The notes beneath the pieces were generated by a model. It did no database searches. It saw only the letters and a list, made by a program, of their open reading frames with translations, and was not told the DNA's origin. Below are positions 6,251 through 59,298 of a stretch of 64,000 bases of DNA, piece by piece; the stretch's first letter is position 1; each line of letters starts with the position of its first letter. Source of the stretch: Chiloscyllium plagiosum (lineage: Eukaryota); assembly GCF_004010195.1 (NCBI RefSeq), contig NC_057756.1, positions 1,701,703 through 1,765,702 of the forward strand. Direction: 5' to 3'. A program made the translations under genes and the position numbers.

Positions 6251-6277
6251 CTGACTTTGTTTTCTCCAGATCAGTTT
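6251..6277 (-). CDS. microexon 16 (27 nt): KTDLEKTKS
   Basis: gtccattcccttgcag|AAACTGATCTGGAGAAAACAAAGTCAG|gtaaag; resembles exon 3 (LxxTK motif). Confidence 0.78.
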
Positions 6278-9200: not shown

Positions 9201-12200
9201 TGGTGTTGGTTCCAGATTGTAGACTGAGAACATATTGATGTCAGATGTGTTTCAGAACTAGGGAAGAGGGATAGATTCTGAACGTGAATTGATCTTGGGG
9301 AATGACTTAGCTCAGGGCCTAGTTATAGGATACAGAAACAGAGATTGGTCAATAAGTGAAACAGTGGCTCTGATTGAGAGCACTTTCTATCTGCTGCAGG
9401 CAAACAGTGTTGTATCTGGAATGTGAGCTCAGGGTTTTGGAAAGTGGCAGTGGTTGTTGAGGGGTGTAACGATATGATCTTAGCTAGAGCTGGAATAATG
9501 AGTGGCAGTGGTTGTTGACGGGGTCAAGATATGGTCTTAGCTAGAGCTGGAATAATGAGACTGATGGACCTACAGGGAAGACAGTGTCTTCAGCGCAGGA
9601 ATGTTGATCGGTTCAGTCATTGCAATAGAAACCTTGTCCTGGGGCGAGTTATGTGAGATCTGTTGCTGCTCTAGGGAATGTGACCTGATCCACCAAGGGA
9701 GCGATTACATTGAATAACTTTACAAACGTATGGCTCTTGTAGTCGGTCGTCTGTTTTCAGGGGGAATTATATTTTGATCATGGTCAGGGATATATATGGG
9801 CTTATCATGAGCTGTAACTGAGGTTTGACAGTTGTCAGTTTAATAATTAAAATACTCATACTTGTTGAAGGTCAAACATTGTCTGAAATTAAAATCTAAT
9901 AAAGTCCCTTTTCAAAAACAACGACCTCAAAATGTTGTTACTATGTTTTCAGCCTAGTGACTATAACTTTAAAATTTTCAGTTTTGTTTTGCCATTAAGA
10001 TGGGTCAAACACTGCATTTTAATGTAATTCCTTGTCACTGCAACTCACACGTGTGCATCGGATGCAAAATTAATGCAATATCCATCGGTCTGCTCCATTC
10101 CTGACGCTAATGCTAAATCGTAATTATGCTGATTCAATTTTCATGGTAACACAGTACAACCATTGTAGGAATGTTCAACATTGATAGATTGAGGATATAT
10201 TCTATGGGCCACCACATTAGGATATGTAATTCTAGCGATGTCCCACTCTTGTGGTCCAGTGGAAAATGGGAATTTATATCTTCCAAACTACTCGAAGGTG
10301 AATATACAGTCTACCTCAATATACACCAAGAGAAAGCTTGTAACACACATTAATATCGAAACGAGATTGAGATGTCATGCAGTGACATGATGAGCAAAAT
10401 TGCAAAAACCCCAAACTGTGTGATCGAACCTAGCAAAGGCTATGATCAAATATCATGGTGTTGTTGCAACGAGACAAAACGGAAATTTGTTATTGAATCA
10501 CCATAGAGCCTCATTAATGGCTAATGAACCAAACATGATGACATAACGTATTGTCGTGTTTTTTTTTTTAACTTACTGGCCTGTTCTGTGCATCTTTTAA
10601 GTTCTAGAAAGCCAAAAAGAGATTCATCATGCAAGCAGTTTGAAAATAAAACAGCGAAATATTAACAATGTGCAGTAAAAAAATTGATGTTGTCGTAAAG
10701 TGAATGCTACCAACGGTCAGCTTAACGAGAAAACTGATTCAAAACAGATGATTTCTGAATACTGGATTTACTAGATAGCACAGCTATTTCTTTTGTCAGG
10801 TCAGTATATTGTGATGCTTTCTGCTGAAGTTTCCTGCCACCATTAATAATTATCCAGTACATGCTTGAACCATTTATTTCATGAGCCAATATCTTGACTG
10901 AAGACCATGATCACCTTCACATACGCAAGAAAAGAAAAATGCATCATGCAACTTATTTGCACAGTCAGAAGTTGAAATACCAAAATTCTTTCCGCTTTTC
11001 ACGCTGTTCCAATCTTGCTATAGATAAACCTCATGTACTTGTTTAATTTAAAAAAAACAATCAATTTCTCTTTCAATTTGTTTTCCTGTGTCTTGTTTTC
11101 ATGTTCTATTTTGCTTGTCCTTTCTGATGTACTTTTTTCATGTGTGCGGATTGATATTCATGTACATTGATATGTTGATATAACTGAGGGACACTGGAAT
11201 TCAGGGTGGAGGGAAATCAAGCAAACAACTACATATGCTTTCTTTTTTAACATTTTGAAATCAAGGCAGCATTATACGAACAGGAACATTGTATGTATTC
11301 ATACAATATGTATATAATCATCAAAGTGACGACTGGGAATTGTTAACAAGGTTTTTAAAGCTACCTTCTTCCAGTTGTCCACGGAACGCTCTAAACCAGT
11401 GCCATAAAACACCAATGATACAATAGACAGAACACAAAAACTGACATAATGAGCAACACTCGATGTTTTCCTATTCTTACCTTTTTCTCTTTTATTCAAA
11501 GTTTCTTCTATAATTGGAAATAATAAGTTGAACTTATGCTGATTTATTCATTTTTTTCAGTCTTGATGGAGAGGAAGTCCATTGGTGAAAAAAACATTGG
11601 GAATAGGAGTTGGGAGTTCATTTTGCGGTTGCACAGGACATTGGTTAGGCCACTGTTAGAATAGTGCATGCAATTCTGGACTCCTTCCTATCAGAAGGTT
11701 GTTGTGAAACTTGAAAGGGTTCAGAAAAGATTTATAGGATGTTGCCAGTGTTGGAGGATTTGAGCTACAGCGAGAGGCTTAACAGGCTGGGACTGTTTTC
11801 CCTACAGCATCAGAGGCGGAAGGGTGACTATATAGAAGTTTATAAAATCATATCGAGCATTCATAAGATAAATATTCAAGACCTTTTACCTGGGTTGGTT
11901 GATTGCAGAATTGGCGTGCATACTTTTAGAATGAGAGGGCAAATATCTCAAAGGGACCTAAGGGTCTACATTATCATGCAGATAATGGTGTGCATATGAA
12001 ATAAGCTGACAGAGGAAGTGGTGAAGGCCGTTACAACTACAAAATTAAAAAGGCACGCCAATGTGATAATGAATAGGAAGACATTAGTGGGATAAGTGTG
12101 AAGTGCTGGCAAATTGGACTAGATTAGGTTAGGATGTCTGGATGCATGGACGAGTTGGTTTGAAGGGAATTTTCCCATACTGTATGTCTTTATGATTCTA

Positions 12201-13016
12201 TGACTCAATATCACACATCATTCTTTGGACGTTTGTCAAGAACATGTGCTAATTGACATCCATCTGCACAATAACCATTCTGTGACACTGTGAATCATTG
12301 AACCATCATACAGAAGGTTTTTTTACATTGCATTGAACTCATTCCTGGACCTATGTACAAACAAAACTCACCAGTTTCATTAAGAGATTCTTTTACTGTA
12401 TTTAGTTCTGTAGTGAGAAAAATAGAAAAGCTTTCTATAAAAGGAATATCAACAGTCCTCGACAAGTAGGATAAGATTAAATAATTATTTATGCATTATA
12501 ATTTAACAATGCACTCCCCTCCATCTATGTGTATTTCTTCCCGTCTATCTGCTATTCTAGCTGTTTGTTTGTCTTTCTNNNNNNNNNNNNNNNNNNNNNN
12601 NNNNNNNNNNNNNNNNNNNNNNNNNNNNNNNNNNNNNNNNNNNNNNNNNNNNNNNNNNNNNNNNNNNNNNNNNNNNNNNNNNNNNNNNNNNNNNNNNNNN
12701 NNNNNNNNNNNNNNNNNNNNNNNNNNNNNNNNNNNNNNNNNNNNNNNNNNNNNNNNNNNNNNNNNNNNNNNNNNNNNNNNNNNNNNNNNNNNNNNNNNNN
12801 NNNNNNNNNNNNNNNNNNNNNNNNNNNNNNNNNNNNNNNNNNNNNNNNNNNNNNNNNNNNNNNNNNNNNNNNNNNNNNNNNNNNNNNNNNNNNNNNNNNN
12901 NNNNNNNNNNNNNNNNNNNNNNNNNNNNNNNNNNNNNNNNNNNNNNNNNNNNNNNNNNNNNNNNNNNNNNNNNNNNNNNNNNNNNNNNNNNNNNNNNNNN
13001 NNNNNNNNNNNNNNNN

Positions 13017-13087
<71 letters not shown>

Positions 13088-16000
13088 ATGTTTAAACATT
13101 ATTGACTTCTTTCGTAGAATAACCAAGTTCTCTTGTTGATGATCCAATTATTAATATATATTCTTTGAACTGTACTTTTCATTCGTACTGGTTGAAGTTG
13201 CGGTTAATGATTTTTTTTGCCATTGCAATGAAATTATAGCAATGACATGCGTGCTCCAGTTTCTAAATATTATTGTTTTAAAACCTTTTTTCCCCGATTA
13301 ATTTATCTTTTTTTCTTTGTTTTTTTTTCGTGTCAAGCAGTGCCCTTCACATCAAACGTCAATGCTCACACCTATTTATATTTTTGTTGTGTGAAATCTC
13401 CTGTTTTTTAAAAATTTATTTATACCCCACACAACCGCCTAACTGCGATAGTGTCTATTTTTTTCCCCAGCACCCATGTTGTGTGTGTGCAGGTGTGACA
13501 CACAGTGAGAGACACAAGGTGTCCGAATCTTTATTCAATTTCCACCACCAGGAAGAAAGCAAACACCCGAGTGGCCAGTGACAAGCAGTGCTCTTCAAAT
13601 CAAAGGGCAATGCTGTGTGATCAAACAGTGAGGGGGGGGGGCGCAGGGATTAAATCAAAATAAAGTTGGAAGGGGAAATAATGCACTCCACTCCCTGCGG
13701 GGCCCAACTCTCCCTGAACAACTCCAGGGTATTGGTGGACACCGCATCCTCTTTCTCCAAGTACACCCGCGCTCTAATGTAACCGCGGAAGAGGGGCAGG
13801 AAGTCGGCCCTAACGACCCCCACCAAGACCCGCTGCTTGGACCTGTTTATGGTCAGTTTGGCCAGGCCCAGGAGCAGTCCCACGAAGAGGTCTTCAGACC
13901 TGCCCTCCTTCCTCTGGACCGGGTGCCCGAAGTTCAGGAACGTCGGACTGAAGTGCAACCAAAAACAGAGGAGGAGGTGTTTAAGAAAATCAAAAAGGGA
14001 GTGTAAACGCCCTCACCCAATATACACGTGCTCCACGGACTCCACAGCGCCACAGAACAAGCAGTTGGGCTGGGAGTCCGTGAGCCACCATAATCTGCGG
14101 TGGCAGGGGACCGCTGCGTGCAGCACCCTCCATCCCAGACCCCGAGAGAAAGGGGGAGGACACCCGGGTAGAGAGCCCTCCACTGGGGATCCCCTCCGCC
14201 CGGTGGCAAATGGGCATGCCAAGGCATGTCCGGATGGTGGATGAGGGAGAAGAGGTGGACAGGGCCCGCCTTTTTACGTCCTTAAAATGGACAAAATTGC
14301 AATTCCGGAGGCGGCTCAGGTTGTGGGTCACAGGCTCCCGCAGTAAGTACGGGACCTTGAGGCCAATGTGAAATTCTGTGCGGGCTGGGGTGAGTGTGGA
14401 CAGGATCCCACCGCACACCTGAGCATCCTCCAACTGGTGCACTATGTCGGGTCCGAGCACCGCCCTTTTAAGGCGTCGGATGCCGGTGCACACGTACCGG
14501 ACGTCTACCGCTGCACTGCTCGCTATGTCCTGCAGCAGCATCCAGCCCAGGCCCCCAGCCCCCAGCACGTCCCCGACCCTGGTCACCCTCGCCGCCACGG
14601 CCCTCCCCTCTGACACCCACTTGAACCCGCAAGTATGGAGGTGCGGATTCCTGAGCAACGGCTCCCTGACGACAGCCGCTACTCCTGCTGGAGGCTAGGC
14701 ATGACGTGCTTCGAACAATTTCCAGACAATGATCAGGTTCTGGAAGCGTTTTGAGGGCGACCTCCAAACCGTCACAGTCGACGAACAGGAGCTGTGTGTC
14801 GTAGTTGAGGTTACGCATCTGGCAGAAAAAATACATTGCCAGGGCGCACCATCTAGGAGGAGGCTCGACGTAAGGGTATCGCTACAAGGTCTGAAGGTGG
14901 AATGTCACGACCTGGGTGCAGACACACACCAGCGACTGTCTGCCCTCCTCAATATGGAGATCCAGAAGCTTCGCAGCGACCCAGTGCATCTTTTTGTCCC
15001 AGAAGAAGTCGACCAACGTTCTCTGGATGTCAGCGACAAAGCCAGGAGGAGGGACCAAAGTGACCAGCCGGTACCACAGAATGGCGGCCACCAGCTGGTT
15101 TATGACCAGCACTCGACTCTTTTAACATAGCACTCGGAGTAGTCCTGTCCAGCGGCCTAGGCGAGCCGAGACTTTGGCCTCCCGCTCCTGCCAGTTGGCT
15201 GGCCAGGATTCCTCAGCCGGGCTGAGGTAGACCCCCAGGTAGAGGAGATGGGTGGTCCTCCAGCTGAACCCCAGTAACTCCTCCGGCAGGGAGTTCACTT
15301 GCCATGGACCGACCAGTAGTCCGGAACATTTGGCCCAGTTGATCTTGGCGGAAGACGCTGCCGAGTACACGGCCTGGCACTCACACATCCTCCCCAGGTC
15401 AGCCGGGTTGGTGAAAGTGAGGAGCATGTCGTCGGCGTAGGCCGAGAGGACCACCCCCATGCCCACGCTGCGCAGAACCAGCCCCGACAACCTCCTCCGC
15501 AAGATGCGCAGGAAAGGCTCCATGCACAGGGAATATAGCTGGCTGGACAGGGGGAAGCCTTGACCCACTCATCTCCCGAAGTGAAGGGGTGTCGTCAGGG
15601 ACCCTTTAACTTTACAAGACACTCTGTGGTGGCGCACAAAAATCGGATCAGGTCTACGAATTGCGTCCCTAACCCGAATGTCCGCAGAGTCCCGAGCAGG
15701 TTTTCATGATCGACCCTGTCAAACGCCTTCTCCTGGTCGAGAGACAGAAAGCCGCTCGGCAGACCAGTCAGTCGACAGAAATGGATCAGGTCCCAGACCA
15801 GGTGGATGTTGTCGTGTATCCTCTGGGCCGGGACCGTGTAAGACTGGTCCTCTAAATGTTTTTTCTTTCCCTGGTTATATTTATTTTTTACATTTTTTTC
15901 CCCCACACGACTGCCTAACTGTGGTCGTGCTTATTTTTCCCCAGCACCGTATGTGCGCACAGGTGAGAGACACAGTGAGAGACAGAAGGTGTACGAATCT

Positions 16001-19000
16001 TTATTCAGTATCCACCACCAGGAAGATAGCAAATCACCCGAGTGGCCAGTGACAAGCAGTGCCCTTCACATCAAAGGGAAATGCTGCATGATCAAACAGT
16101 GAAGGAGAGGCAGGGATTAAATCAAAATAGAGTTGGACGGGGAAAAATGCACTTCACTCCCTGCGGCGCCCACCTCTCCCTGAACAACTCCAGGGTGTTC
16201 CTCTAATTGTTATTGAATGGTTTGTGATAATTAAATTGCTACGTCAGAAATACTTTTTGAATTTGCATTGATTACACATGTATTAAGTACCATCGAATGG
16301 CAAAATACTGAGAATAAAAACGTGAAGGGATGTAACAGATCTGAATCTATCGAAGTTTGGGACTGAACTACAGTACGGTGAGATCATGAAAGATTTAGGG
16401 AGGCGCAGTGGCTCAGCAGTTAGCACTGCTGCCTCGCAGCACCAGCAGACCCGGTTTCGATTCCGAGTTTGCACATTCTCCCCGTGTCTGCGTGGGTTTC
16501 CGCTGGGTATCCTGGTTTGGTGAACTGACCGTCTTAAATTGTCCATGGTGTTAGGTGAAGTGGTAAATGTAAGGGAATGGGTGTGGATGGGTTGCTCTTC
16601 GAAGGGTCAGTGTGGACGTATTGGGCCGGAGGGCCTGTTTCCACTCTGCAAGTAATCTAATCATTCTGCTGAAGTGTTGTATCTGCATACTGATAGCACG
16701 CCAGGTTTCCCCCAGTGCAACTCACAATACCGTACCAGTATTTTAATACGCTTGTGCATATTGCATTACACTCTCAGTATAATCCATTCTAAATAAGAGT
16801 CACAGTTACAATGAAATGAAAAAGCAAGGTATTTTTTTTTACTTCTGTTAACGTTTTAGGAAATTATAGTATGAAAAAAATGTGAAGATAAAATCATACC
16901 TCTTTCCTTTTTAGCCAGGTTTTGTTCTATGTTAATAAAGAAGCAATATGCAAATTGTACATTATTGCATAATAATAGCATTGTGCTGATACTTTCCCAG
17001 CAATAATCAAGGAAACACCAAAGCAATCTAATTATTGACTCAGATTTCTAACAGAACTTAACACAACGATGTGTTATCAAATTGCCCACTGATTCTATTG
17101 TACCAAGCCTTTCCAAATATGTTTATTCTACCTAGCCTATGGAATGCCAAGTGTAGGTTTTAAATCATAAATGTCGTTGGATTTGAATATAAGAAATCAT
17201 TCACTTTTTTCACAATGTTGCTGCAGAGGAGTGATTGCTGCTTATTGAAGACATTAATAAAAGTGATTTTCCTCTGAGTGAAATGAACATCAGCGTTATC
17301 AATTTACAATAACAACCTGCAGTTTCTAACCCCTGAATTAATAGAAGGAAACCAACATAAAAATTGGGAACTCTGCCATGTTTCATGTGCTCTGTCTCCT
17401 CCACTTTGTGCGTCATTGCTATGAGATTCCCAGTGATATATTATCTCAATTCAATTATTTCTTCACGAGGAGTTATTTTCTCGAAATACAAAAATCAACA
17501 ACTCTCTGCATCATATATACCCTATAATTGCTAATCTGAGTGCACAATGCATACTGATTTTGTTATTGCAGAAGAGTCATTGAATTTTGTACTTTTAAGT
17601 ATTAATGGAGGTATTTGTTTAAAGGTGCTGTAGATTCTCAGTTTATTTTTCCCCATCATTTTAAAACACCTATTCTTTTCTCAATTATGAACACAGAGAT
17701 GAACAAATCCATTCCTTTTAAACAGAAACTCATCATCAAGGCGAATTGTTTCATTAAGTGTTTAATGATATCAATGAAAATATTATAGTAAAATCTTTTG
17801 TTGCTGAATGAATTTCGATATCCAGACCTCATAATATGACGTGTTTGTCAAATTATGCGTCAACTCAGAAGCATCGTTTTAAAATACTTTGTCATGTCAT
17901 CAATATGAATATTGGAGCAACAACAAAGAACATAGAACAAAGAAAATTACAGTACACGAACAGTACCTTCGGCCGTCCAAGCCTGTGGCGATCCACATTC
18001 TCTATCTCAACATGTAGCATATTTTCTAAGAGGCTGTATCTTTCAGCTCCCTGCCCATTCATTAATTTGTCTAGATATATCTTCAATGACGCTATCATTA
18101 CCGCCTTTAACACCTCCATTTGCAACGTGTTCCAGGCACCCACCACCCACTGTGTGACGAAATTTCCACGCATATTTTCCTTAACCATTTGCTCTCTCGC
18201 CTTGAAAATGTGACTCTTAGTAAATGCGTCGCCCACTCTGGGAAAAAAAAAGCGTCTTGGTATCCACCCTATGTAATCCTTCATGATTTTTCGATCTCAA
18301 TCAGGTCCCCTCTTAACCTCTACATTACTAATGTAAATAATCCCAACCTCTCTTCATTGCTAGTGCCTCCCATACCAGGCAACATCCCGGTGAATCTCTC
18401 TGCACCCCCTCCAAACCATTCACGTCGTTTTGGTAATATGACAAGCAGAAGTGTACACAGTGTTCCAAATGTGGACAAAACAAAATCACATATAATGGTA
18501 AGATGACCTGCCAACTCTGGTACACAATACTTCATGCGGTGAAGGAAAGCATGTCTTCTTGACCACTCTGTCCACCTGCATTACCAGCTTCAGAGAACAC
18601 AAATGGACCTGAACACCCAGATCTCTCTACACATCGATTTTCCCCAGAGCTTTTCCATTCATTTTACAGTTCGCTCTTGAATTGGATCTTCCAAATTGTT
18701 TCATCTCAAATTTGACCGGATTGAGATCCATCTGCTAATTCTTTGCCCATTTCCCTCATCTATCTAGATTCGGTTGCATTCTCCAATAGTCCCCCTCACT
18801 ATCTGGTCCTACGCTAATCTTCATGTCATCTGCAAACTTGCTCATAAGACTGCCTATTCATTCATCCAGATAGTTTATGTCTATCACAAACAACAATAGT
18901 ACCAACATGGAATCGCATGGAATACCGCTGGTCACAGTTCTCCACTTTGGGAAACTCCCTTTCATTGTTGCCCTCTGTCTCGTTCTGCTTAGCCAGTTCT

Positions 19001-22000
19001 CTATCATTCTATCAAGTATGCCCTGAACCTTATGTGCTTTCACTTTCTCCATCAGCCTGCCATGTGGCATTGTGTCCAACACCTTACTGAAGTCCATGCA
19101 TATGGTATTGTGTCAAACACCTTACTGAAATCCATGCATATGACATCTGCAGCCCTTCCCTCATTAATAAACTTTATCACTTCCTCAATGAATTATATAA
19201 GGTTTGTAAGGTATGACCTTCCCTACACAAAACGATGTTGCTTACCACTGATAAGCCCATTTTCTACCAAATATAAACAGGTCCTATCGCTCAGTATCTT
19301 CTTCAATAGCTTCCCTACCACTGACATCAGGTTCATTGGTCTATAATGACCTGGATAACCCCTGATAGAATTCTTAAGGAAGGGGATGACATTGGCAATT
19401 TTCCACTCCACCGGGACCTCATCCGTGTTCAAGGATGCTGCAAAGATATCTGTTAAGATCCCGGCTATTTCCTTTCTTGCTTCCCTCAGTAACATCTGGT
19501 AGTTCCCATCCGGGCGTGGAGACTTGTTCCGTTAACACTTTTCAGAATACTCAACATTTTGTCCCTCCTTATGTGGACTTGGCTTACAGTTATCAAATAT
19601 CTATCCCTAACCTCAACGTCGGTCATGTCCCTCTCCTCAGTGAATACTGATGGTATGTACTCTTTACGAATCTCACCCATTTCCTCTGACTCCATGCATA
19701 AGGTTCTTCTTCGTGCTCGAGTGGGTCAACCCGTTCTCTGGTTACCACCTTGCTCTTTATATAGGAATAAGTGGCGTTGGGATTTTTCTTAACCTTGTTG
19801 GCAAAGGAAATTTCATAATAGTCTTAATTCCTCGTTTCAGATTGGCCCTACCTTCCTGATACTGTTGCAAAGCTTCGTCTATTTTCACTCAACTATACCT
19901 TATGTATGGCTTTCTTTTTCCTCTTCACTCATCTCACATTATTACCTTTCATCTATGATTCCTTAATCTTGCTATTTCGTTCCCTCATTTTCAAAGAAAA
20001 TTCCCTCAATCGAATTCATCTCTCTTTAAAATCATCCCATATATCACATGTGGATTTATTTTCCAACACCTGCTAACAATTCACATTCCCCAGTTTCGGC
20101 CGAATTTTACTGTCGTTGGCCTTCCTCAAATTTAGCAATCGCCATTTTCGGAACACTCACATTTTTGTCATGAGTTGCCTAAAACTTACGGAAATCTGAT
20201 CATTATTCGCAAAGTATGACTCCACTGAAATATTAGCCACCTGATCGGGCTCATTCACCAACAGAAAGTCCAGTATAGCCCCTTCCCGAGTTGGACTATT
20301 TGCAAACTACTCTACAAAACCTTCCTGGATGCTTCTTACAAATTCTCCTCCTTCTAGTCCTCTAACATTTGGTAAATTCCAGTCATAGTTGGGAATATTA
20401 AAATCTATCACCACCACTGTGTTGCTCCTATGTCTTTCCATAATCTGTTCTCATATTTGTACCAATATCGCATGCTCACTGTTGGCAGGCCGGTTGTACA
20501 GTCCCAACATTGCTACCGCACCATTCATATTTCTGAGCTTTGCCTACATTGCCTCACTGCTCGAGTCCTCCATAGTGACCTCATTCGGCCCAGCTGTGAT
20601 ATCCTGTCAGACCAGTGATTCAACTGAGATGCTGGTTCATGACCCGCATTTTCTGATGCATGCTACCAAAGCAACTGGGAAATTTGAAAGAATAGTCCTT
20701 TGGATTAAAGTGCCCAAATGATGAGCTTTTGTTATTGGTACTATAATAAACGAATACAACGTGGTCACTATACCCTGCGAGTAGATTACACGGAAACAAA
20801 ATATACACCATGCACATCATGGATATTCTGATACCCATTGTTTCACTCCACTCTATTTTCCTGTCTGGTGTTTGGGAACTTTTGCTTTAGGTGGCAGACT
20901 ACAAAGCAATACTTGTTGAATGCATAACCATGTCATATTTGTGAATTTCTCATATTCTATGCAAGCATTATTTTTCGTCTGTGGATCATGTTAAGTGGAC
21001 ATCTCAATGAAATTTTCAAATTAAACGGACGCTATAGAAATAATTTACATTAGAACATAGCAGCCCAAACAGGTAACACTGCTCTCGTTCTCATATTATG
21101 AATCTTGACATCTGTGGAACAGAAATGACTATACAGTATTATATATATATTTTAAAAATCCAAACCTGTTACATTCCATTGAAAAGTATATACTTATGAA
21201 ATGATTGTCTCAAACCAACAAGGGAGACACAGTAAGATTTCACAATGGCAAAGCTATGACAACTGAGCAATCGAATTCATTTAATTTGTTAATTGACAGT
21301 TTCCGTCTATTCACATAAACAGTTCAATTTTTCCAAATATATTTCACTTCATCCTCACAAAACAGAATGATTTCATTCATTTCTTTATGGAAGTATTCCT
21401 TGAGTATTGTGTCATTCACTAGCCACTAAAGGCACAGCACCGGCTATTTTGTGCATGTTGCTGTAGGTAGTCCTAAACACAGGACTTTGTGAATCTCTGT
21501 CAGAAGTTCCACTAAATGAGCAACTGTGATGCAGATCGGTGTATTAATAAGGAAATGAAGCAAGCCCTCAGGTGATAGCAGCATGCTAAATGTCACAATC
21601 TTTTTACATGTTGTTTATTTGAGAAGACAATGCACGTTTTGGAATTGGTGCCATGAGACGTGCATTAACTTGCTCCAAGTGCAATAACGTTGAAAGTCGA
21701 TGCATTCTGTGTTATTTTCGATCAATAATTGAGGAGTTACTGCAGTTGACAAAGTTCTCAGGGGATCATTTATAAATAGGTCAGGAGAAACTGTCTGCCC
21801 ACAGACTCCCCATAGCAAATCAGACAACCATTGTTAAGCATTCTTACCATTATAACACACAACAAGAACAGAACAGATTTAAAAAAAAATACAGTAATAA
21901 ACCAAGAGTATTCATGATTTGATAGTAAAACAAAATTAGTTTATTTACCAGTTTCATCAAGACTTTTATTCACGTCTTGCAATTCTGAAAATATATGGCA

Positions 22001-23603: not shown

Positions 23604-23670
<67 letters not shown>

Positions 23671-35600: not shown

Positions 35601-36317
35601 GCTCACGTAGAGATGGCATGGTTTCTCAGTGCTTAGCACTGCTGCCTCACAGCGCCAGAGACCCGGGTTCGATTCCAGCCTCTAGGCGACTGTCTGTGTG
35701 GGTTTCATCTCACAATCCAAACATGTGCAGGTTAGGTGAATTGACCGTGCTCAATTGCCCATAGTGTTCAGGGATATGTAGATTAAGTGTATTAGTCAGG
35801 GGAAAATATAGGGTGGGGGAATGGGTCTTAGTGGGTTAATCTTCGGACGGTCGGTGTGGACTTGTTGGGCCGCAGTGCCTGTTTCCACACTGTCATGATT
35901 CTGATTCTGATAATATGTAAATGTTGATAAAGCACTATGTTCATGGACAAATTTATTCCGAAACAGATACCATGCTCAGTTAAAGCTGATACCTGGAGAA
36001 ATAAGCTTTTACGTTTATAGCTATTACCACAGAGAAAATATTCAAGGCTAGTAATTGAAGAATATCCTGAAATACCTTGCATTGCTCTTGCAACAGACCT
36101 CAATTCATGAAATTCAATCTTATGGTGGTAATTCTGTTTGCATTGGACGTTAATTATGAATGGATCAAAATCTTGAATTTGACCTGAACTGATGGTTTGT
36201 TTTTGCTCAGGAATATGACCAGATTTCTATTTTAGTGTTTCGTTTCCTAGATTTTGGCCTCCTGTATCATCTGAAATTACGTGGAAGTCCACACACACGC
36301 TACACACGCACGCACGC

Positions 36318-36349
<32 letters not shown>

Positions 36350-42300: not shown

Positions 42301-45300
42301 TACCTTAAACTAATGTATAGTCACTACCGTATCTCATTTGAATGTTTTTCCCCAGATAACTGTTTCTCGAAGTTTCATATTCACCAAAATGACTTCGAAT
42401 GTCAAATGGTGGTCCGTTCATCAAGCAAATTCCAATCTGAGTGTTTCATGCCACACCAGAAGAATATATGAAGGCCCACACACACCGACGCAAAGACAGA
42501 CAGACAGATAGACAGATAGGCAGACACACACGCACATACACGAGCGCACGCACACACATGATCGCACACACAGACACAACACACACACACAACACACGCA
42601 CACATACATTCTGAAAAAAATCATACACTTTGACAAGAAAGTACTTACCCATTCCTGCTAGATCTAGTCCATTATGGTCTGTACCTGTAAAACATATGTA
42701 ACTCATTAGCGACCATTTTTAAATCTCTGTGCTGGACCTATTTCAACGCACAACCTCGGCCAGACGTAGCCATGCACCCACAGTTAATTTCTCTCCAGAG
42801 ATTTTCTCTATTGAAATGATCAAACAACATTCAAACTTATGGTTTTCAGACAGCTGATGAAACTAATAAATCAAATGAAACCGTGAGCATACTGAATTGG
42901 AAAATCATACGCCCGGCAGGCTGACGTGAAAATGACAGGGAGCATTAAGGAACCACTTATCATTAATGGCCAGCTTTAGGCGAACTTTAACGAATGGCAA
43001 CTGCTTACTGGTAGCACATTGTCCTTCATGATGAATTTTGTTTTTTTTTTACCGATAATTACCTGTCACATTTTACAGAACACGACAATGTATTTGAATT
43101 TAAGAGCAAGAAAAACTGTCATATAAAGCAGAATGACATATTATGTCACAGTGGACACATTATTCAGGAAAGTGTGGGAACCCATTTGGCAATAATGTCA
43201 GCATGACATGATGATTCGAAAGAGTTGTTTTATTTTGCATTGTTATGACTAAAGTCACTGTCACAACTGATTTCTGTCTCTCCCTAACTCCTCAAAACTC
43301 TTACCACTGCAAATTGATCAGCAAATTTTTCAAGTGCTTTGGAATAAGGTACTTAGCCTCATTTCTGAAAATACTGCCATTGTTTTGACTTGAAGTTAAA
43401 CTGATTAAAATGCACTTCAATTTTCAAGGCATGTTTTCCTTCTCACATATCGGCACATTTTACTCCACATCTTGCTGACGTAGAGCATAATGAAATCGCG
43501 ACATATAATCCAACATGGGGTATTGTCAATTAATTAAACTGTAACCTACTGTAGTACTGAAATTGCAAAAGTAAGAAGCACTACACAATATTCTGACAGT
43601 GGAGTATAAATTTATCATACATCCAAAGTGTGCCTGATAGATTACTGAGTAAACATAATTCTGTAGTCAACAACTTACTGCACTTTTGCCGAAGAGCTTC
43701 TAATTCTGAAGTAAAGATAACGTTACCAGTTTTAAGCTTCGATATTCAAAGACGATTGCCACACCAAATTAGCAACTGTTGACCCAGTTCTATTCAAGTA
43801 AAATGAGAAAAACTATGCATTGTGAAGTCATTAACACCTTCTTAACTCTATGTTCCAAACATTATATTCTACAGCTTCAACCTGGACCTAGCCACATGTT
43901 CACCTTAGAGTTCACTACAGCATTATTCTCCATTGAAAAAAAAAGACTTGCAGCTGACAGTGAAGTGAATAAACTGATGTAATCAAATGATGACGTGAGC
44001 AAAGTAGATTTGGGAAAGAAAATGTATGGCACATAATGTGTAAATAACAAGGTAAATTAAATAACTACATTTTACAAAGTGGCTATTTTGGACTCACTTG
44101 CAAGTAATGAGAACTGCTGACTGGTAGCACAATATGCGACATGAGGGAGTCTCCTTTGTCAATGACAGCTGTGTATCACATTTACCCAACAAGGATATGT
44201 AGTTTAACGTAAGGGGAGTATGTCTGTCATATAAAATGAACTATTGTGTTACACTGCAAGAGTTAATAAGGAAAGGATAAATTGACTATAACGTTCTCAG
44301 ACTGTAATTTTGGTGGTGAAATTTTGTTGTTTCGGTGGAAGTGATTTTCCAATCCCCAAAGATAACAGTGAAAAACAATGCACAGATCTGAAAATAGTGC
44401 AAACAGAACCCAGATATAACACAATACCTTGACTCATAATACGACAAACAAGCAATGGAATAACACGGTTTTGGACCTATTTTCTTTCTTTGATTTACAT
44501 TAGTGAACATGCTAAATTCAATATTCAAAAAAAAAGTCCTCCCTGTGCAATTCTGCCAAAATAATTTAGGAAATCGTTGAGTATGCAGAAAGCATTTTCG
44601 TCATATTTGTGCGATGTAATATGTCACTTATGTGAGTTCAATGGATACTTATTTTTAAAATAACACGTTCACACCCTTCCACAATTTCTTATGCCATTTC
44701 CACAAGTTGACAGAAAGCATATAGCAATGTCATGTAATTAGCATTTTGATCAATTATTCCTATTCAAAAGAAGCAATTGCATTCCAATTAAATGTAACTG
44801 ATTAGGAACATTTTTAAAAATCCTGTTACTCACACAAAGACAGATACAAAAGAATGGCTATCGTAGTCCTCTCCCATAGGATGCTCAGAGATGGTCCTTT
44901 CGGCCGTGTTAAGTCTTGCTGTTCCTTGATCATTGTTCACTTGTTTTCAGGAGGCATCCAGTACTGATCACATTCATAATATATCTGACATACTTTTAAA
45001 AAGGCAAATCCTACAGCAACTTTTGAGGGAATAAGCTATCTCTCCGTGAGATTGCGACTGCTGCATTTTGTTTCTGCAGAAAAGAAATATAAAACCACCT
45101 TTTGTTTCCAGAGATCCAAGGGCTCTTGCTCAAGTATATAAACGCACAAACTATTCAGTTGCCTGGGAAGCAATGTCATAGTTGTTAACAACAGAAAGCG
45201 TATTGTCAGCGACAATGAATCACGGTTCTGCAGACTAATCAATTGTGTGCGAACAGCCAATTATCCACTTGGATAGATCTTTGCTGCAACTTCTATTCAA

Positions 45301-48300
45301 CCAGATTTCCAGAACTGCTTAGATAAATAACCTTGATCAGAAGAAAGCAATGAATGTTTTATAAACAAATGCAGAAAATGCTCGTAAAACTCAGCAAGTT
45401 TGGCATCATCTGTGGACAGAAATCAGCATTAAATGTTCAGCTCCAGTGACCCGTCCTTAGACGTGCCCTGAAGACTGGTCACTGGATCTAAAATACAAAC
45501 TCTGATTTCTGGCCACAGATACTTTCCGACCTGGTCAATTTTCCCAGAAATTTATGCTTCTGCTTCTAATTTTCACGATCTAACGTTCCTTCATTTAAAA
45601 AAAAAATCTTTTTACTATATAATATGATTTCACTACTTTGCTTCAAAATAACCAGTTTACGATTTCAGACTGTCGTGAAAAAAAAAACAGAAAATAAAAA
45701 ACGTTTATTTTGCACGAATTAAATGTTGAGGGTATATTCCAGAATTATTCTTTTCAATTGTGAAAGACCATGAAATATGAAGTGTCTACCTATCCTTTAA
45801 TTACTGGCATGCTATTGAAACTACCCGCTTGTTTAAGTTGCCACAAATCAAATAAATATATACAATTACACTTTTGAAAACCTAATTCATACAGCGCCTG
45901 GAATTTCCATCTCTCCAGGATTGGAGACTTGATGTCAGTGTATTCAAACGCCAAACATTTTCAATGACTTCACATCTTTGTACCCCGTTAATATATTTTT
46001 CGTATTACACATTTGTTTTGACCAATCTTTCTGGGAACAGCAATTCTAATTGCTACTTATGAGTTTTGTTGCACTTAAATTTGCACTGATCAAATCCTGA
46101 GGTATGTCATTGGCATCATAGGTTTCACAAACATCATTGAAATTGACATAATAACCAGTACGAAATCAACTAATCCTATCTCTTCCAAGTGAAGTATATT
46201 TAAGTGTGGATGGCAAAACGGTCCGAATGTATTAAAAATAATTAAAATGTTAATCACCTTACCATTTTTTGTATCGCTTAACAGTTTTTCTGCAGTGTCA
46301 GAATATTTAAAATATAGAATATAAAATTGACAGCATAAGGAAATTTTACAGTTGCTAGTGTAAGACTTATTTACGAAATTTGGGAAAAATGGCTATCGAA
46401 ATTGTTTTGTACGAACTTAGGTTTAACAAACTAAAGACAAAGTTTAACATCAATGAAGAGAGACTTTAGCTGTGAAACAATTTAAAATTTAGAGAATATT
46501 ACTTAGCCAACATACTCATCGCCAAAGTTCAACAACTGAAAATGCTAAAGTAATAATCTTCAGTATTCATCAAGAAAATGTTTTGCATGTGCTAGATTAT
46601 GGTGGTGAATTGAGCCTTAACACGTCCTTATTTCTGTTTCAATGTAATAATTTATTGAGCAGAATTGCAGCCATTGCTATACTTCGACTAAATTCAACGT
46701 CCATTGATTTAAATGTTTCACAGCGAAATGGAAAAACCGTAATTTTTTTGAGCATTTTTGATCTAAACTTGCATTTCAGAAACACAGTGATCCACACACG
46801 AATAGAAAAGCACATCGTGGAATTGAATATGTTTCTGAACAAAATATGAGCTGTGAAAAGTTTATGGAGAAGAATTATGGCAGTAAATCCTTGCAAGGAT
46901 TGATTTGTACAATCGTGCAAACATACTGATTACCGTCAGTAATAACAAATATCATTAACATTGGTAACGTGGTAGAATAATCAATTTCACGCATGGTTAG
47001 GATATTATTTAAATAAAACCAATGTGAGGAAATATAACTTGCTTGTAACTTATACGAATTGGCTCAGTTTGCCACCTGATATTACACCTTATAAAAGGAG
47101 ATGAGTGTGGCAAACCGAAGACCGCATGCTATTTCACCACAGACAAGGTTATCTAGCTCTTATAATCTCAATTTACAGCTTCTAACACAAAAGGCAGAAC
47201 GAAAGAAACAAACTAAGAAACCTTGCATACTAACAGACATATGAAAACGCCAAACCACGAAGTGGATTGTCGAAACAGACAAACAAGAAACAAAACAAAA
47301 AAAATCCTGATGATACTGCTACTCAAAGAGACATGTGAACACCAAATCAAATTTATAAGAAATGTTATAGGTACAAATAGGATGAAACCAAGAGCATGTC
47401 CTCACTTGCAAATGTTCTGTATGTATTTGTTAAGCTGAGCACTTTATGCATTAATACGTGCTATGGACAAGACCAGAGGTTCTCAAAATACATTAACAAG
47501 TGAGCCTGGACCATAGATGTATCTAACATTAAAGGCAGATATGAAGTGTACATTCTGGATGTGATGCAGTTGGTCAAACCACTTGAGTTTAAGCAAAACT
47601 AAATTTGTTTAGAATGAACAGGTGAAACCCAACCAAAATAATTCAGAAATTAAAAAAATCTAACGAACGGAGACCTTAACCAACCCGATGCAATAAATAC
47701 TACAAAGTAACCGTCCTAATAGAACCACAACACATAAAGTCACCCCTTTGCAAAAGGTTAAAATTCAGACACATTCTTACAGGCAGGAGGAAACAACTTT
47801 CAAAGAGAGATTTCAGAGAAAGGTTAGTGGAATCCTTTACTGTGGTTTGCATCTCCAGTGGATTCACACATATTTTGTCTGTCTCAGATAAACCAAGCTA
47901 CAAAAAACTGAACTGGGAGAACTAGGCACTCCCTTTTTGATTCTTCAGACCCTCTGCCATTACGACCTCTCTTGAAAAAAAAAGAAGGAAAAAATAATCT
48001 TTTAGAAGTGAAACCATTGTCACACACACTGGGAAGGTAACATACTTCGTATATACCTAACAATCAGTTATCTGTAAAAATACCAAGGTGGTTATGATAG
48101 AGGATTTAACTTTCCAAACATAGACTTGGAATGCCTTTGTGCGAAGGCTTTACATTGAGAGGAATTTGTTATGTGTGCACAAGATTTTTTTTATGATTTA
48201 GTCTGTGGATGCATTTACTAGAGAAAGTGCAAAACGTGAACTAATAAGGCAGAGCGAGTGACGGAGGTGTCAGTGGGACAGTACTTTCAGGGTCGCGACC

Positions 48301-57300: not shown

Positions 57301-59298
57301 TCCTCCCAAGAAGCTCAAATGGGCCTCCAACGAAGAAGCAACACAGACCCATTTCCGTCTGACTAATTCAGCTAACGGTCTGGGCAATTTAGCATGGACA
57401 ATTCACCTAACCTGCACGTCTTTGGATTGAGGAAGAAGAACCAAGCAGATACAGGGAGAATGTGCAAACTCCACGCAGACAGGAATGGAACCGGGGATTC
57501 GGATGGTGCGAGGCAGTAACTACTGAGCCAGTGTAACATCTCATGAGGCTGCCTAGAAAACGGTTCAGTGAAACCTCAGCGTGCAAACACGTGAAAGAGC
57601 CATATTGCATTATTAGAAGTGTCCTGGCCTTACCTTGCCACCTTAATAGTTGAAAAAGTGCATTTTTGCGGAAATTTGTGATGATCTGATGATATTTCAT
57701 AGAAATAAGAAAGTATGTTTTCTCACGTTTAATATTTTGGAACAATAGATCACTGTTCATGGCAAATACATGTTACACCTGAACAGTATGGACGGGAGCT
57801 TTCCCTCTTTCAGAATCTCCATGCGTACACACAAGTGTGTGTGTGTGTGAATTTCCTATAAGAGGGCCCACTAAATCTTCCTGTATATGATGAAAATATG
57901 TTTAGACAGGAATTTTGTATTCATTGAATTGGAAGGGTAGCCTGAGGTTTAGTGTGATCAGCTATGAACTTGTTACATGCATGAACATCCTCAAAGTTTC
58001 AAATAGCCTTCCATTGAAGATAACTGGCAATGTGATATGTAGTTTCAAGCAGGTTGTATTCTTAAGGTGTTCCGTTGTCAGCGAATAAACAAAGCCCATA
58101 ATATGCTACTTCTGAGTTACCAGCTATTTTGATATATAGGGGCTAGCAGATATTCTCAGAAATCAGAATTTGGCACCTTTTCTTTCAAATGTTTTTCCTA
58201 CCAACTGCAAACTTTAGGACTTAAATCTGCGCTGCATTTAAAAGCAAATACATGGCTAATTACGGCAATTAATGCTACTATTTGCTTTTCAACTCACGTG
58301 TATCCTCAAGAGCCTTTTTCACATTGTTCAATTCTTGACAAAAGGAAGAGAAGTTTTGATAATCGTGACACGTTCTCTAAAATAATTTTGAAAATGACTA
58401 TCATAGTTGCTGCAATGACTTAGATTGCCCACAACACAGCCATTTTATTTTCACCATTACTGATAGCTCTTCTTGCTTCAATTTTTCTTTCATTGTTTTC
58501 AAACAGATGACGCATACCGACAGACAAATGTAAAGATCTGATAGTTAAAGGAATGAATTTCTACCCAATGAAACATAGACAAATTGAAACACAGAATGAT
58601 TACAGAACAGAAGCATGACATCTGAGCTATTCAGTCCACACCATCCTTCTGAAGAAAATCCCAACCAGAACCCCAATTTATCGCCTTGACCTTGCATCTG
58701 AAATGGCCAATCCACATAGGCTGCAAATACCTGGACACTGTGGGCAATTTATCAATGCCAATCAACCTAACGTGCACATCACTGGATTGTGGGAGAAAAC
58801 CGGAGCATCCCAGAATAAATTCCACACTGACAGTCGCGTGAGGCTGGAATCCACCCGTTTAACATACCTATGCTAAACATTGATCTGCCCAAATTCAATT
58901 TAAAATTAATCAGAAATTATGATTGAAATAATTCAGTCGACAGTAATACATGATAAATAATTCAGCCTACTTCATATTGCCTGAACACCAGAATTGACTA
59001 AACTTCCTGCGGATTAAAAGATTAAATCTGACTAACCTAACTTTGAATTGCTTTGTTTCTCGTGAAGTTGCCCATTACCATTCAAAAAAAAAGTTGTGAT
59101 CATTTTAATGGTTACCGTAATTCAGAAACAGATAATCAATATTACCCACAATACACAAAATTCTGTTGTTTTGAAACATTCATGTTACATATTATAGTTG
59201 GGGGATCACATTTAAGACTTCTGACCAAGCAAAGACAATGCGATAAAATGTAATCAGTTTGTGTCACCTACCTTTTCCATTTCCACTTGATTTTTCTT
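6251..59298 (-). CDS. Partial multi-exon gene: 16 phase-1 microexons (27/36 nt) encoding a ~162-aa heptad-repeat coiled-coil segment; both ends not established
   Basis: 16 segments, each bounded by an AG acceptor and GT donor, all 27 or 36 nt and on one strand. They splice collinearly without a stop and are mutually homologous. Individual exons are listed below. Confidence 0.85.
7700..8055 (+). mobile_element. Penelope-like element 3' fragment
   Basis: Degenerate GIY-YIG C-terminal-like sequence (WHS..SINKHIDLDPIY) followed by a decayed CTGATGA hammerhead-type motif at 7982. Confidence 0.65.
9442..9559. repeat. tandem duplication, ~58 bp x2
   Basis: agtggcagtggttgttga...tcttagctagagctggaataatgag occurs twice. 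Confidence 0.9.
10577..10603 (-). CDS. microexon 15 (27 nt, C type): ELKRCTEQA
   Basis: ctctttttggctttctag|AACTTAAAAGATGCACAGAACAGGCCA|gtaagt. Confidence 0.85.
11481..11507 (-). CDS. microexon 14 (27 nt, B type): EETLNKREK
   Basis: tatttccaattatag|AAGAAACTTTGAATAAAAGAGAAAAAG|gtaaga. Confidence 0.88.
11597..12205 (+). mobile_element. CR1 LINE 3' fragment (~600 bp)
   Basis: ORF 11739-11999 (LEDLSYSERLNRLGLFSL) and a (ctatga)-type tail. Confidence 0.9.
12372..12407 (-). CDS. microexon 13 (36 nt, A type): ELNTVKESLNET
   Basis: ctatttttctcactacag|AACTAAATACAGTAAAAGAATCTCTTAATGAAACTG|gtgagt. Confidence 0.9.
12579..13016. other. assembly gap (N run) within a (TCTA)n/(TCTG)n microsatellite
   Basis: N characters, followed by (ATCT)n at 13017-13087. 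Confidence 0.98.
13280..16198 (-). mobile_element. Tx1-clade LINE: one ~2.5 kb 5'-truncated copy plus two short 3'-end copies in tandem
   Basis: RT motifs on the minus strand (YTVP..IHDN, SLDQEKAFDRVDH, QG.PLS.QLY, AYADD) and a C-terminal CLFCG..ESVEH zinc motif. The 3' region recurs at ~13400-13730, ~15870-16198 and as a fragment near 13330. Confidence 0.9.
16398..16662 (+). mobile_element. HE1-like tRNA-derived SINE
   Basis: A-box-like gtggctcagcagttagcactgctgcctc, core tttgcacattctccccgtgtctgcgtgggtttcc, tail gtaatctaat. Confidence 0.85.
16900..16926 (-). CDS. microexon 12 (27 nt, B type): EQNLAKKER
   Basis: ttctttattaacatag|AACAAAACCTGGCTAAAAAGGAAAGAG|gtatga; close paralogue of exon 10. 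Confidence 0.85.
17925..20620 (-). mobile_element. long degraded CR1 LINE (ORF2)
   Basis: Minus-strand fragments YRPMNLMSVVGKLL, MDFSK.LD.MPHGRL, VTSGIP, PHLEHCVHF, RGNFVTQWVVGAWN. Confidence 0.9.
21949..21984 (-). CDS. microexon 11 (36 nt, A type): ELQDVNKSLDET
   Basis: catatattttcag|AATTGCAAGACGTGAATAAAAGTCTTGATGAAACTG|gtaaat. Confidence 0.88.
22210..23160 (-). mobile_element. CR1 LINE fragment
   Basis: DDSKI..IV, WQTEIN..KCEVLHF, FTQRVV, FKMHLDKHL. Confidence 0.85.
23590..23670. repeat. (GATA)n microsatellite
   Basis: Read directly from the sequence. Confidence 0.95.
24874..25180 (-). mobile_element. HE1-like SINE, full length and well preserved
   Basis: Minus strand starts gggcagcacggtggcacagtggttagcactgctgcctcacagcgccaggagacccgggttcaagtccc (A and B boxes) and ends in (tctaa)n. 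Confidence 0.92.
27030..27056 (-). CDS. microexon 10 (27 nt, B type): EQKLSKKER
   Basis: ctctacattcaacag|AACAAAAATTGAGCAAGAAAGAAAGAG|gtaaga. Confidence 0.88.
27622..28228 (-). mobile_element. young CR1 LINE 3' fragment (~600 bp)
   Basis: Intact 167-aa ORF2 C-terminus at 27704-28207 (LLRPLLEYCVQFWS...). Confidence 0.95.
31300..31335 (-). CDS. microexon 9 (36 nt, A type): ELEEKIEILGET
   Basis: aaattgaattgcag|AATTGGAAGAGAAAATTGAAATTCTTGGAGAAACAG|gtaaga. Confidence 0.88.
31655..31725. repeat. degenerate (GATA)n microsatellite
   Basis: Read directly from the sequence. Confidence 0.8.
31855..31881 (-). CDS. microexon 8 (27 nt, B type): DNKLRQKGK
   Basis: ttttttttattcacag|ACAACAAGCTTCGCCAAAAAGGAAAAG|gtaaac. 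Confidence 0.85.
32700..33000 (-). mobile_element. degenerate HE1-like SINE
   Basis: Similar to 24874-25180 (gaatgtgcagattccacgcagacagtc, ctgagccaccgt). Confidence 0.7.
33490..34480 (-). mobile_element. degraded CR1 fragments interrupted by a probable Penelope-like fragment (~33930-34300)
   Basis: CR1 3' end similarity (ccaaatgccttttaaatgttgt); the interrupting segment is a low-confidence call. Confidence 0.5.
34870..34905 (-). CDS. microexon 7 (36 nt, A type): EIKELEQSLADS
   Basis: tctgttctttccatcag|AAATAAAAGAGCTGGAACAAAGTCTTGCAGATTCAG|gtgaga. Confidence 0.88.
35610..35905 (+). mobile_element. HE1-like SINE
   Basis: ttagcactgctgcctcacagcgccagagacccgggttcgattcc ... gcctgtttccacactg. Confidence 0.85.
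36289..36349. repeat. (CA)n/(CACG)n microsatellite
   Basis: Read directly from the sequence. Confidence 0.9.
36520..38650 (-). mobile_element. old degraded CR1 LINE
   Basis: LLRPRLENCLQFW; SEHGF...RSCQTNLI..F; VVYLD. Confidence 0.8.
38998..39638 (+). mobile_element. two adjacent HE1-like SINE copies (~38998-39287 and ~39400-39638)
   Basis: SINE head and core motifs with taatcta tails. Confidence 0.85.
39983..40009 (-). CDS. microexon 6 (27 nt, B type): EEKLKRREK
   Basis: ctgcttcctcattgtag|AGGAAAAATTGAAAAGGAGAGAAAAAG|gtgagg. Confidence 0.85.
40180..40264. repeat. tandem duplication, 39 bp x2
   Basis: ttttgccatcattgtggccagttgaaagaacata occurs twice. Confidence 0.92.
40757..41217. mobile_element. 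nested palindromic (Penelope-derived-like) elements
   Basis: Outer inverted termini aaaatcacaca..ttatagtcc / ggactataacc..tgtgtgatttt. Inner insert 40881-41100 has ~80-bp inverted arms and TSD caggttatag (40871-40880, 41101-41110). Confidence 0.75.
40975..41010 (-). ncRNA. minimal type I hammerhead ribozyme motif
   Basis: Minus strand reads CTGATGA-AGGGC-TTTT-GCCC-GAAAC-GTC. Confidence 0.65.
42480..42607. repeat. compound (GACA)n/(CA)n microsatellite
   Basis: Read directly from the sequence. Confidence 0.85.
42649..42684 (-). CDS. microexon 5 (36 nt): STDHNGLDLAGM (linker-like)
   Basis: atatgttttacag|GTACAGACCATAATGGACTAGATCTAGCAGGAATGG|gtaagt. Confidence 0.75.
43679..43705 (-). CDS. microexon 4 (27 nt, C type): ELEALRQKC
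   Basis: ttatctttacttcag|AATTAGAAGCTCTTCGGCAAAAGTGCA|gtaagt. Confidence 0.85.
45360..45590. mobile_element. old palindromic Penelope-derived-like element
   Basis: Imperfect inverted arms (atctgtggacagaaatcag..tccagtgacc / ggtcactggatc..ctgatttctggccacagat) with a decayed ctgaaga motif. Confidence 0.55.
46263..46289 (-). CDS. microexon 3 (27 nt): QKLLSDTKN
   Basis: ctgacactgcag|AAAAACTGTTAAGCGATACAAAAAATG|gtaagg; keeps the heptad register between exons 2 and 4. Confidence 0.8.
47560..48024. mobile_element. possible solo LTR
   Basis: TGTGA...TCACA termini and LTR-like size; no clean TSD. Confidence 0.35.
48060..51015 (+). mobile_element. degraded CR1 LINE ORF2 with a nested antisense copy
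   Basis: GDFNFP-like (48101), GKSCLTNL, PQG.LLGPL.F.I.IND, 3' end near 51010. Confidence 0.88.
50155..50747 (-). mobile_element. young CR1 3' fragment (~600 bp) nested in an older CR1
   Basis: Intact 164-aa ORF 50230-50724, highly similar to 27704-28207. Confidence 0.95.
53245..53560 (-). mobile_element. degenerate HE1-like SINE
   Basis: tgtatggaaacagg, gtgcaaactccacataga, gtgaagcagcagtg. Confidence 0.7.
54385..54963 (+). mobile_element. Rex1/Babar-type LINE 3' fragment
   Basis: Degenerate CIITWFENC...QRIVKIAE.II...LFSLLPSGR...IRLLN C-terminus and a (ctcta)-like tail. Confidence 0.75.
55265..55391 (+). mobile_element. short insert carrying a minimal hammerhead motif
   Basis: CTGATGA-AGGGC-TTAT-GCCC-GAAAC-GTC at 55275-55302; short duplication agtct at 55260-55264 and 55392-55396. 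Confidence 0.65.
57265..57535 (-). mobile_element. degenerate HE1-like SINE
   Basis: gggcaatttagcatggacaattcacctaacctgcac; gagaatgtgcaaactccac. Confidence 0.75.
58298..58333 (-). CDS. microexon 2 (36 nt, A type): ELNNVKKALEDT
   Basis: ctcttccttttgtcaag|AATTGAACAATGTGAAAAAGGCTCTTGAGGATACAC|gtgagt. Confidence 0.85.
58595..58855 (-). mobile_element. degenerate HE1-like SINE
   Basis: ggattgtgggagaaaaccggagca core. Confidence 0.7.
59272..59298 (-). CDS. microexon 1 (27 nt, B type): (x)EKSSGNGK
   Basis: ctgattcttattgtag|AAGAAAAATCAAGTGGAAATGGAAAAG|gtaggt; similar to exon 39983-40009 including its acceptor (cattgtag). Confidence 0.7.

Follow-up and report, generated by a model that had tools for sequence, protein, structure and literature searches.

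The neck of CD23 is encoded by one 63-nt exon per 21-aa repeat, with three to four repeats. Non-fibrillar collagen genes are built of exons of 27, 36, 45, 54 and 63 nt, with a codon split after its first base. Ig-domain exons, too, are in phase 1-1, and the introns of BG genes are short. CD23 (FCER2) is described, in the section of PMC6791321 drawn on here, as a trimer with a heptad stalk. Chicken BG genes, according to the excerpt of PMC4046983 used here, carry heptad exons of 21 (sometimes 24) nt, 13-36 per gene, in a number that varies by duplication and with alternative splicing that keeps the frame. Chicken BG and troponin T were the only parallels returned by a literature search on microexon or heptad coiled-coil arrays, a result that does not by itself show the gene considered below to be undescribed.

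We analysed the window, a stretch of 64,000 nucleotides of a shark genome (contig NC_057756.1, here C47, positions 1701703-1765702), together with flanks of 140 kb to either side and another 10 kb upstream (354 kb); signed positions below are window coordinates. The locus resembles BG and butyrophilin genes, in so far as the same excerpt describes them (PMC4046983), in its long runs of tiny frame-symmetrical heptad exons, its predicted alpha-helical coiled coil and its duplication-variable exon number. We consider it probable, judging from the sequence, that these are genuine coding microexons, which would form the middle of one huge minus-strand gene or of a few tandem genes and would encode a long alpha-helical rod of heptad coiled coil. 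The initial annotation had proposed a hidden gene segment of this kind, made of symmetrical 27/36-nt microexons that ORF finders cannot see, and the data on length, frame, periodicity and selection given below back it.

Microexons of the window and their splice signals

The minus strand of the window carries 16 AG...GT segments (Table 1); ten measure 27 nt and six 36 nt, for a sum of 486 nt. Joined in order by script, they form a stop-free phase 1-1 frame, in which 11 of the 15 junctions split a Glu codon and the other four split codons for Gln, Ser, Asp and Lys. All of these numbers exactly reproduce those of the initial annotation, and its description of the donors as mostly strong holds for gtaagt, gtgagt, gtaaga and similar sites but not for a few weak ones (gtaaac, gtaaat and gtatga). 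The least certain of the 16 is the linker exon at 42649-42684, which both the total of 486 nt and the count of Glu at 11/15 junctions require; it resembles another linker exon at +99265. The exon at 59272-59298 is preceded by a Cys-ending exon outside the window, and the flanks of exon 58298-58333 match only themselves in the 3.56-Gb genome.

Table 1. Microexons of the window (window coordinates) and paralogous matches elsewhere on the contig (C47 coordinates)
Feature	Position	Strand	Residues and remarks
27-nt microexon	59272-59298	-	EKSSGNGK; phase 1-1, Gly/Ser-containing linker, open in frame; acceptor ...ttattgtag, donor gtaggt
36-nt microexon	58298-58333	-	LNNVKKALEDT; opening half of a 21-30 aa module
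27-nt microexon	46263-46289	-	KLLSDTKN; acceptor ...cactgcag, donor gtaagg
27-nt microexon, Cys-ending class	43679-43705	-	LEALRQKC; one of four in-locus exact class-C pattern matches (control 0)
36-nt microexon	42649-42684	-	TDHNGLDLAGM; non-heptad linker; acceptor ...gttttacag, donor gtaagt
27-nt microexon	39983-40009	-	EKLKRREK; donor gtgagg, donor score 6.9
36-nt microexon	34870-34905	-	IKELEQSLADS
27-nt microexon	31855-31881	-	NKLRQKGK; weak donor gtaaac
36-nt microexon	31300-31335	-	LEEKIEILGET; donor gtaaga, donor score 7.2
27-nt microexon, E-Q-x-L-x-x-K-E-K/R class	27030-27056	-	QKLSKKER; exact class-B pattern match
36-nt microexon	21949-21984	-	LQDVNKSLDET
27-nt microexon	16900-16926	-	QNLAKKER; class-B pattern with one mismatch
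36-nt microexon	12372-12407	-	LNTVKESLNET
27-nt microexon	11481-11507	-	ETLNKREK
27-nt microexon	10577-10603	-	LKRCTEQA
27-nt microexon	6251-6277	-	TDLEKTKS; last exon of the window; array goes on at -8.4 and -10.4 kb
Class-C paralogous microexon match	C47:779787-779821	+	~0.75-0.95 Mb from the window
Class-C paralogous microexon match	C47:823120-823154	+	~0.75-0.95 Mb from the window
Class-C paralogous microexon match	C47:974624-974658	+	~0.75-0.95 Mb from the window

AG...GT intervals were sought with a donor weight matrix and a threshold on the pyrimidine tract, at modest cut-offs and ignoring the reading frame. The scan returned 14 intervals of 27 nt (two of them internal-AG sub-intervals within 36-nt exons) and 7 of 36 nt on the minus strand of the window, as against an average of 2.03 and a maximum of 6 for the other 89 lengths. 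The same scan found 3 and 1, respectively, on the plus strand. Over 344 kb the minus-strand totals were 46 at 27 nt and 27 at 36 nt, with 5-21 (about 12) for each of the other lengths from 9 to 120 nt, and the plus strand held 14 and 5. In both the window and the 344 kb, 27 and 36 nt were the only enriched lengths, and they were enriched on the minus strand only. When a composition filter was added, 57 candidates remained on the minus strand of the 344 kb versus 7 on the plus strand.

The reading frame, which the scan ignores, is coherent among the intervals that it returned. The phase 1-1 frame is open in 66 of the 73 splice-filtered 27/36-nt intervals, while the remaining two frames are open in 30 and 41; intervals of control length are open in 34, 43 and 49 of 72, depending on the frame. 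Joining 47 ordered candidates gave no stop. One of these (+172004-172030) sits inside a repeat copy and was later removed. A stretch of GA-rich simple sequence at 2545-2850 of the window has a Glu/Lys/Arg-rich translation on the plus strand and looks like the microexons, without their splice-site structure.

Splice logos of the 55 exons in the curated set described below consist of a T-rich tract, a YAG acceptor (50/55), A as the first exon base (48/55) and G as the last (47/55), the donor logo partly reflecting the donor filter used in selecting exons; the exon bodies are 45% A. Hexamers in the exon flanks gave signals of three- to fourfold only, such as TGCATG upstream of 9 of the 55 exons versus 2.5 expected, which are not significant over 4096 words. 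Such small exons, lying across introns of 0.5-15 kb, would be spliced via exon definition, possibly aided by their purine-rich bodies and by good Y-tract/YAG acceptors. Since every exon has a length divisible by 9 and lies in phase 1-1 (most junctions dividing a GAA codon, for Glu, after its G), any exon could be added, lost or skipped without a change of frame.

Several other features lie among the exons of the window. Retroelement remains with RVT_1 matches occur in an intron on the minus strand (15125-15568 and 15598-15930), and plus-strand ORFs at ~3000-5260 resemble the pol/integrase of LTR elements by eye. A run of 438 Ns (12579-13016) lies 172 bases upstream, in the direction of the transcript, of exon 12372-12407, and nine more runs of 37-2452 bases are found in the flanks, mostly in a microexon-free stretch described below. 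The N runs may be assembly gaps and could hide exons.

Heptad repeats of the encoded protein

The larger part of the locus (array A, 46 exons) has a predicted product of 458 aa with 75 Glu, 80 Lys and 73 Leu residues (50% together), 10 Gly, which lie mainly in short linker exons, and no Pro or Trp, a composition compatible with a helix and free of breakers. The Leu heptads noticed in the initial annotation are real, as a hydrophobic period of 3.5 residues was matched by only 1 of 2000 shuffles for the 161 aa of the window exons, and by 2 of 2000 for the 458 aa. Heptad position a is taken by Leu (44), Ile (7) and Cys (3), and position d by Leu (18), Lys (12), Thr (7), Ala (6), Val (6) and Ser (5). 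The periodicity and the apolar a and d positions are those of an alpha-helical heptad coiled coil, though d also accepts Lys and Thr; as about half of the residues at d are not hydrophobic, the coiled coil may be marginal or broken in places. The local register assignment is unbroken over most exon boundaries, and it shifts about every 30 aa in modules of three exons.

Each 36-nt exon was followed by a 27-nt exon (15/15), so the basic unit is 63 nt, or 21 aa, or three heptads. The consensus of the module is E-L-x-x-V/L-K-x-x-L-x-x-T/S from the 36-nt exon and then E-Q/K-x-L-x-x-K-E-K/R from the 27-nt exon. Some units include an extra 27-nt exon that ends in Lys-Cys, often followed by a Gly/Ser/His linker exon, and it is there that the register shifts. 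In three of the four Lys-Cys exons the Cys falls at heptad position a, where it could cross-link chains by a disulfide. The rod would be a parallel, in-register dimer or trimer. Its length could be set by the choice of exon pairs, because each 36 + 27 pair amounts to exactly three heptads, and it might be tuned through the skipping of such pairs. N-x-S/T sequons are not enriched (3 versus 2.55 expected), and an extracellular stalk therefore gains no support from them.

Extent, duplication and selection

The curated set comprises 55 AG/GT-bounded exons between +201.5 kb and -136 kb, of which 46 form array A (+201,519 to -10,418) and 9 form array B (-107,879 to -136,136). The earlier count of at least 16 microexons was thus an understatement, the window holding neither the whole array nor either of its ends. 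A further exon, QKLSKRER at C47:1482839 (-218.9 kb), is probable from a genome-wide pattern search. The locus extends over 338 kb or more (probably >420 kb), of which ~0.7% is coding.

The two arrays are separated by a microexon-free stretch of 97 kb (-10.4 to -107.9 kb) that contains retroelement ORFs and one same-strand C2H2 zinc-finger ORF, on account of which the locus may be two or more genes. This minus-strand ORF of 243 aa (~-61823 to -61095) includes several C2H2 zinc fingers (PF00096, E 4.6e-32) and adjoins an N run of 2452 bases. Another minus-strand ORF, of 316 aa (~-16449 to -15502), has no Pfam match and by eye resembles the C-terminal endonuclease region of Penelope-like retroelements; similar sequence occurs on the plus strand of the window at ~59885-60175.

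We searched the whole genome with patterns made from the exons. All six exact matches of the class-B pattern, that of the second exon of the module, fell inside the locus, and at up to two mismatches its total (74) was no higher than that of a reversed-pattern control (89). The class-C (Lys-Cys) pattern gave 8 matches versus 0 in the reversed control: four known exons, three plus-strand sites of C47 (Table 1) and, on a different contig, one match with 3 mismatches. The match at 823,120, for which one 6.5-kb piece was examined, is a well-formed 27-nt exon (LEDLEQKC) with the acceptor ...ctttctcag and the donor gtgagt. These three plus-strand matches suggest a second, paralogous array in convergent orientation ~0.75-0.95 Mb away. 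A pattern made from the N-terminal exon was confined to its two known copies, and the class-C exon pattern had 0 matches in a metagenome scan.

The regions scanned yielded neither a first or last exon of the gene nor a UTR or an exon for a globular domain. Specifically, no ATG exon with a hydrophobic segment was seen between +201.5 and +214 kb, and no convincing terminal exon downstream of -10.4 kb. A search of the 354 kb for larger phase 1-1 exons flanked by strong splice sites gave ten candidates, all of which resemble repeats or read-through.

In-frame pN/pS among paralogous exons was 0.67 for the 36-nt class (78 pairs), 0.36 for the 27-nt class B (105 pairs) and 0.20 for class C (6 pairs), and 0.82-1.74 for the identical exons in wrong frames, with pS of 0.67-0.83 (near saturation) and pN of 0.16-0.45, the latter being biased downward because exon classes were assigned partly by eye from translations, for which the wrong-frame control corrects only partly. 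In 10 exon pairs the exons were 61-89% identical and the adjacent 150-nt intron flanks 0.48-0.62, shuffle means being 0.50-0.56; 18 of the 20 flank comparisons lay within the shuffle range. Of the two exceptions, the downstream 150 nt of the +94023/+80467 pair reached 0.62 where the shuffles went no higher than 0.58, and for +88704/+115275 the downstream flank, at 0.48, fell under the shuffle mean of 0.50, so some similarity between introns may remain. Taken together, the open frame, AG/GT boundaries, exact lengths, low pN and introns mostly at shuffle level imply, as far as can be judged from sequence, long-lasting selection on the exons after duplication.

Self-BLAST of the 354 kb detected exon-bearing paralogous DNA for two candidates only. 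One is the dropped repeat-borne candidate; the other belongs to a segmental duplication of 71% identity that takes in intron sequence as well (+162114-162480 versus +174109-174493) and shows the mode of array growth. The array may have grown by tandem duplication of sets of 2-4 exons, the introns having since diverged completely while purifying selection would have held the exons. Copies in possible decay are also seen. The exons at +88704 and +78151 encode the same 8 residues and differ at 3 sites, all synonymous, and the latter (+78151 to +78177), which has the poor donor gtacaa, may be a decaying duplicate of the former. At ~+174.3 kb a 71%-identical copy of the +162351 exon block, possibly decaying too, has acquired a Pro codon.

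Alternative explanations and known systems

The array might instead be a decaying or never-expressed relic, composed of the exons of a dead gene or of duplicated pseudo-exons with a coding look. Ends of the gene that were not found, several weak donors, the poor donor of the near-duplicate at +78151 and the Pro codon gained by the duplicate of the +162351 exon would all fit such a relic. However, 46 consecutive exons retain an open frame, AG/GT boundaries and exact lengths, pN is low at a pS near saturation, and intron flanks are at shuffle level in nearly all comparisons; we regard a relic as unlikely. Hardly credible is that the pattern is due to chance, or is a by-product of a dispersed repeat carrying purine-rich segments bounded by AG...GT. 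One candidate (+172004-172030) did prove to be repeat-borne, and GA-rich simple sequence yields look-alikes in the 97-kb gap. Against this reading stand an enrichment specific to strand and length, the coherent frame and unique flanks, class-B exact matches confined to the locus and class-C matches absent from the control.

The initial annotation had thought of a stalk or tail protein, and of IgV/TM, B30.2 or C-type lectin exons in the flanks. We ran Pfam scans on minus-strand stop-to-stop ORFs, namely 300 of the 330 of at least 55 aa in the 97-kb gap, the 73 at +194 to +214 kb among 97 of at least 50 aa from +186 to +214 kb, and 120 of at least 96 aa across the arrays, and obtained only reverse transcriptase, RNase H and zinc-finger matches, and no V-set, Ig, PRY, SPRY or C-type lectin. 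The idea of a stalk or tail found no backing, as within these ORF-length limits the minus strand of the 354 kb has no Ig, B30.2 or C-type lectin exon. If the array were the cytoplasmic tail of a BG/butyrophilin-like Ig-superfamily membrane protein, IgV and TM exons would come before it and perhaps B30.2 after it, and phase 1-1 would match the phase of Ig-domain exons. Its many tiny symmetrical heptad exons in duplication-variable number are indeed the design that the excerpt reports for BG (PMC4046983). Against such a tail stand the lack of V-set, Ig, PRY and SPRY matches in the ORFs scanned and of a hydrophobic first exon at +201.5 to +214 kb (the true 5' end lying beyond the reach of the scan), and also the genome-wide searches, in which, with 150 of ~290 candidates scored for each domain, the contig had a single SPRY match (at 4.58 Mb, 2.7 Mb off) and no PRY match. 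Moreover, the exons are of 27/36 nt rather than 21/24 nt, for which the counts over 344 kb are at background (14/13 on the minus strand versus 21/14 on the plus strand), and the introns are kilobases long, whereas those of BG are short. We consider this tail quite improbable. More improbable still, it seems, is that the array encodes the extracellular neck of a receptor like CD23, ASGR or the Kupffer-cell receptor, a type II C-type lectin whose TM exon would lie upstream and whose C-type lectin domain exons would lie downstream. The 21-aa, three-heptad unit equals the CD23 neck repeat and likewise comes from repeated exons, although as 36 + 27 nt and not as one exon of 63 nt, and the Cys residues in the heptad core would fit a location in an oxidising compartment. 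Yet Lectin_C (PF00059) has 43 matches in the genome (133/133 candidates scored) and none on the 10.7-Mb contig C47, so the C-terminal lectin domain of CD23 has no counterpart there; downstream of the array nothing lectin-like was seen, whether ORF or motif (among ORFs above the length cut-off, to -140 kb), and sequons are not enriched. Regexes for C-type lectin motifs gave nothing convincing on the minus strand of the 354 kb, and Fibrinogen_C, with 81 matches genome-wide, has none on C47.

We return to genuine coding microexons of a coiled-coil rod as the probable reading. A bolder and rather doubtful extension of it is that sharks possess a family of convergent genes of >0.4 Mb whose sole coding content would be 50-100 symmetrical 27/36-nt microexons, without a globular domain of any known family, and whose product would be a splice-programmable coiled-coil ruler or spacer; this would be the largest heptad microexon array described. 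If expressed as one transcript, the locus would be an extreme gene structure, with >50 exons, each of 9 or 12 codons, that the splicing machinery would have to recognise across kilobases of intron. It would then offer a natural system for studying how microexons are defined in a basal jawed vertebrate and a clear case of protein length evolving via duplication of exon sets. Such a gene is invisible to ORF finders, and probably to many gene predictors.

Like non-fibrillar collagen genes, the locus has long arrays of exons that are multiples of 9 nt, all in phase 1-1, but only 27 and 36 nt are enriched here. Collagen triple-helix exons were considered and rejected, as the translations have no Gly-X-Y, Gly makes up 10 of the 458 residues and the period is 3.5, not 3. 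With the CD23 neck it shares a 21-residue, three-heptad repeat that is encoded exon-wise and amplified by exon duplication; unlike in CD23, two exons (36 + 27 nt) share this unit, the units number >15 as against 3-4, and no C-type lectin domain lies on the contig. The introns, of 0.5-15 kb, set it apart from BG genes. The N-terminal microexons of troponin T are also tiny and charged, and they are alternatively spliced in a helical region; unlike here, the portion of PMC2447309 consulted describes only a handful of such exons, which are not heptad modules and belong to an otherwise ordinary gene. BG genes, in the excerpt cited above (PMC4046983), have one heptad per exon of 21/24 nt and 13-36 such exons, whereas here two exons of 36 and 27 nt make three heptads and there are at least 55 exons; BG genes also begin with signal, IgV and transmembrane exons, none of which was found in the ORFs scanned over 354 kb. 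On this comparison the closest known design is the heptad-exon tail of BG and butyrophilin, from which the locus differs in how its exons add up to heptads, in scale, in intron size and in that no flanking domains were detected. Transcribed as one unit, it would extend the heptad-per-exon design of bird BG and mammalian butyrophilin tails to an arithmetic of 36 + 27 nt, on a far larger scale.
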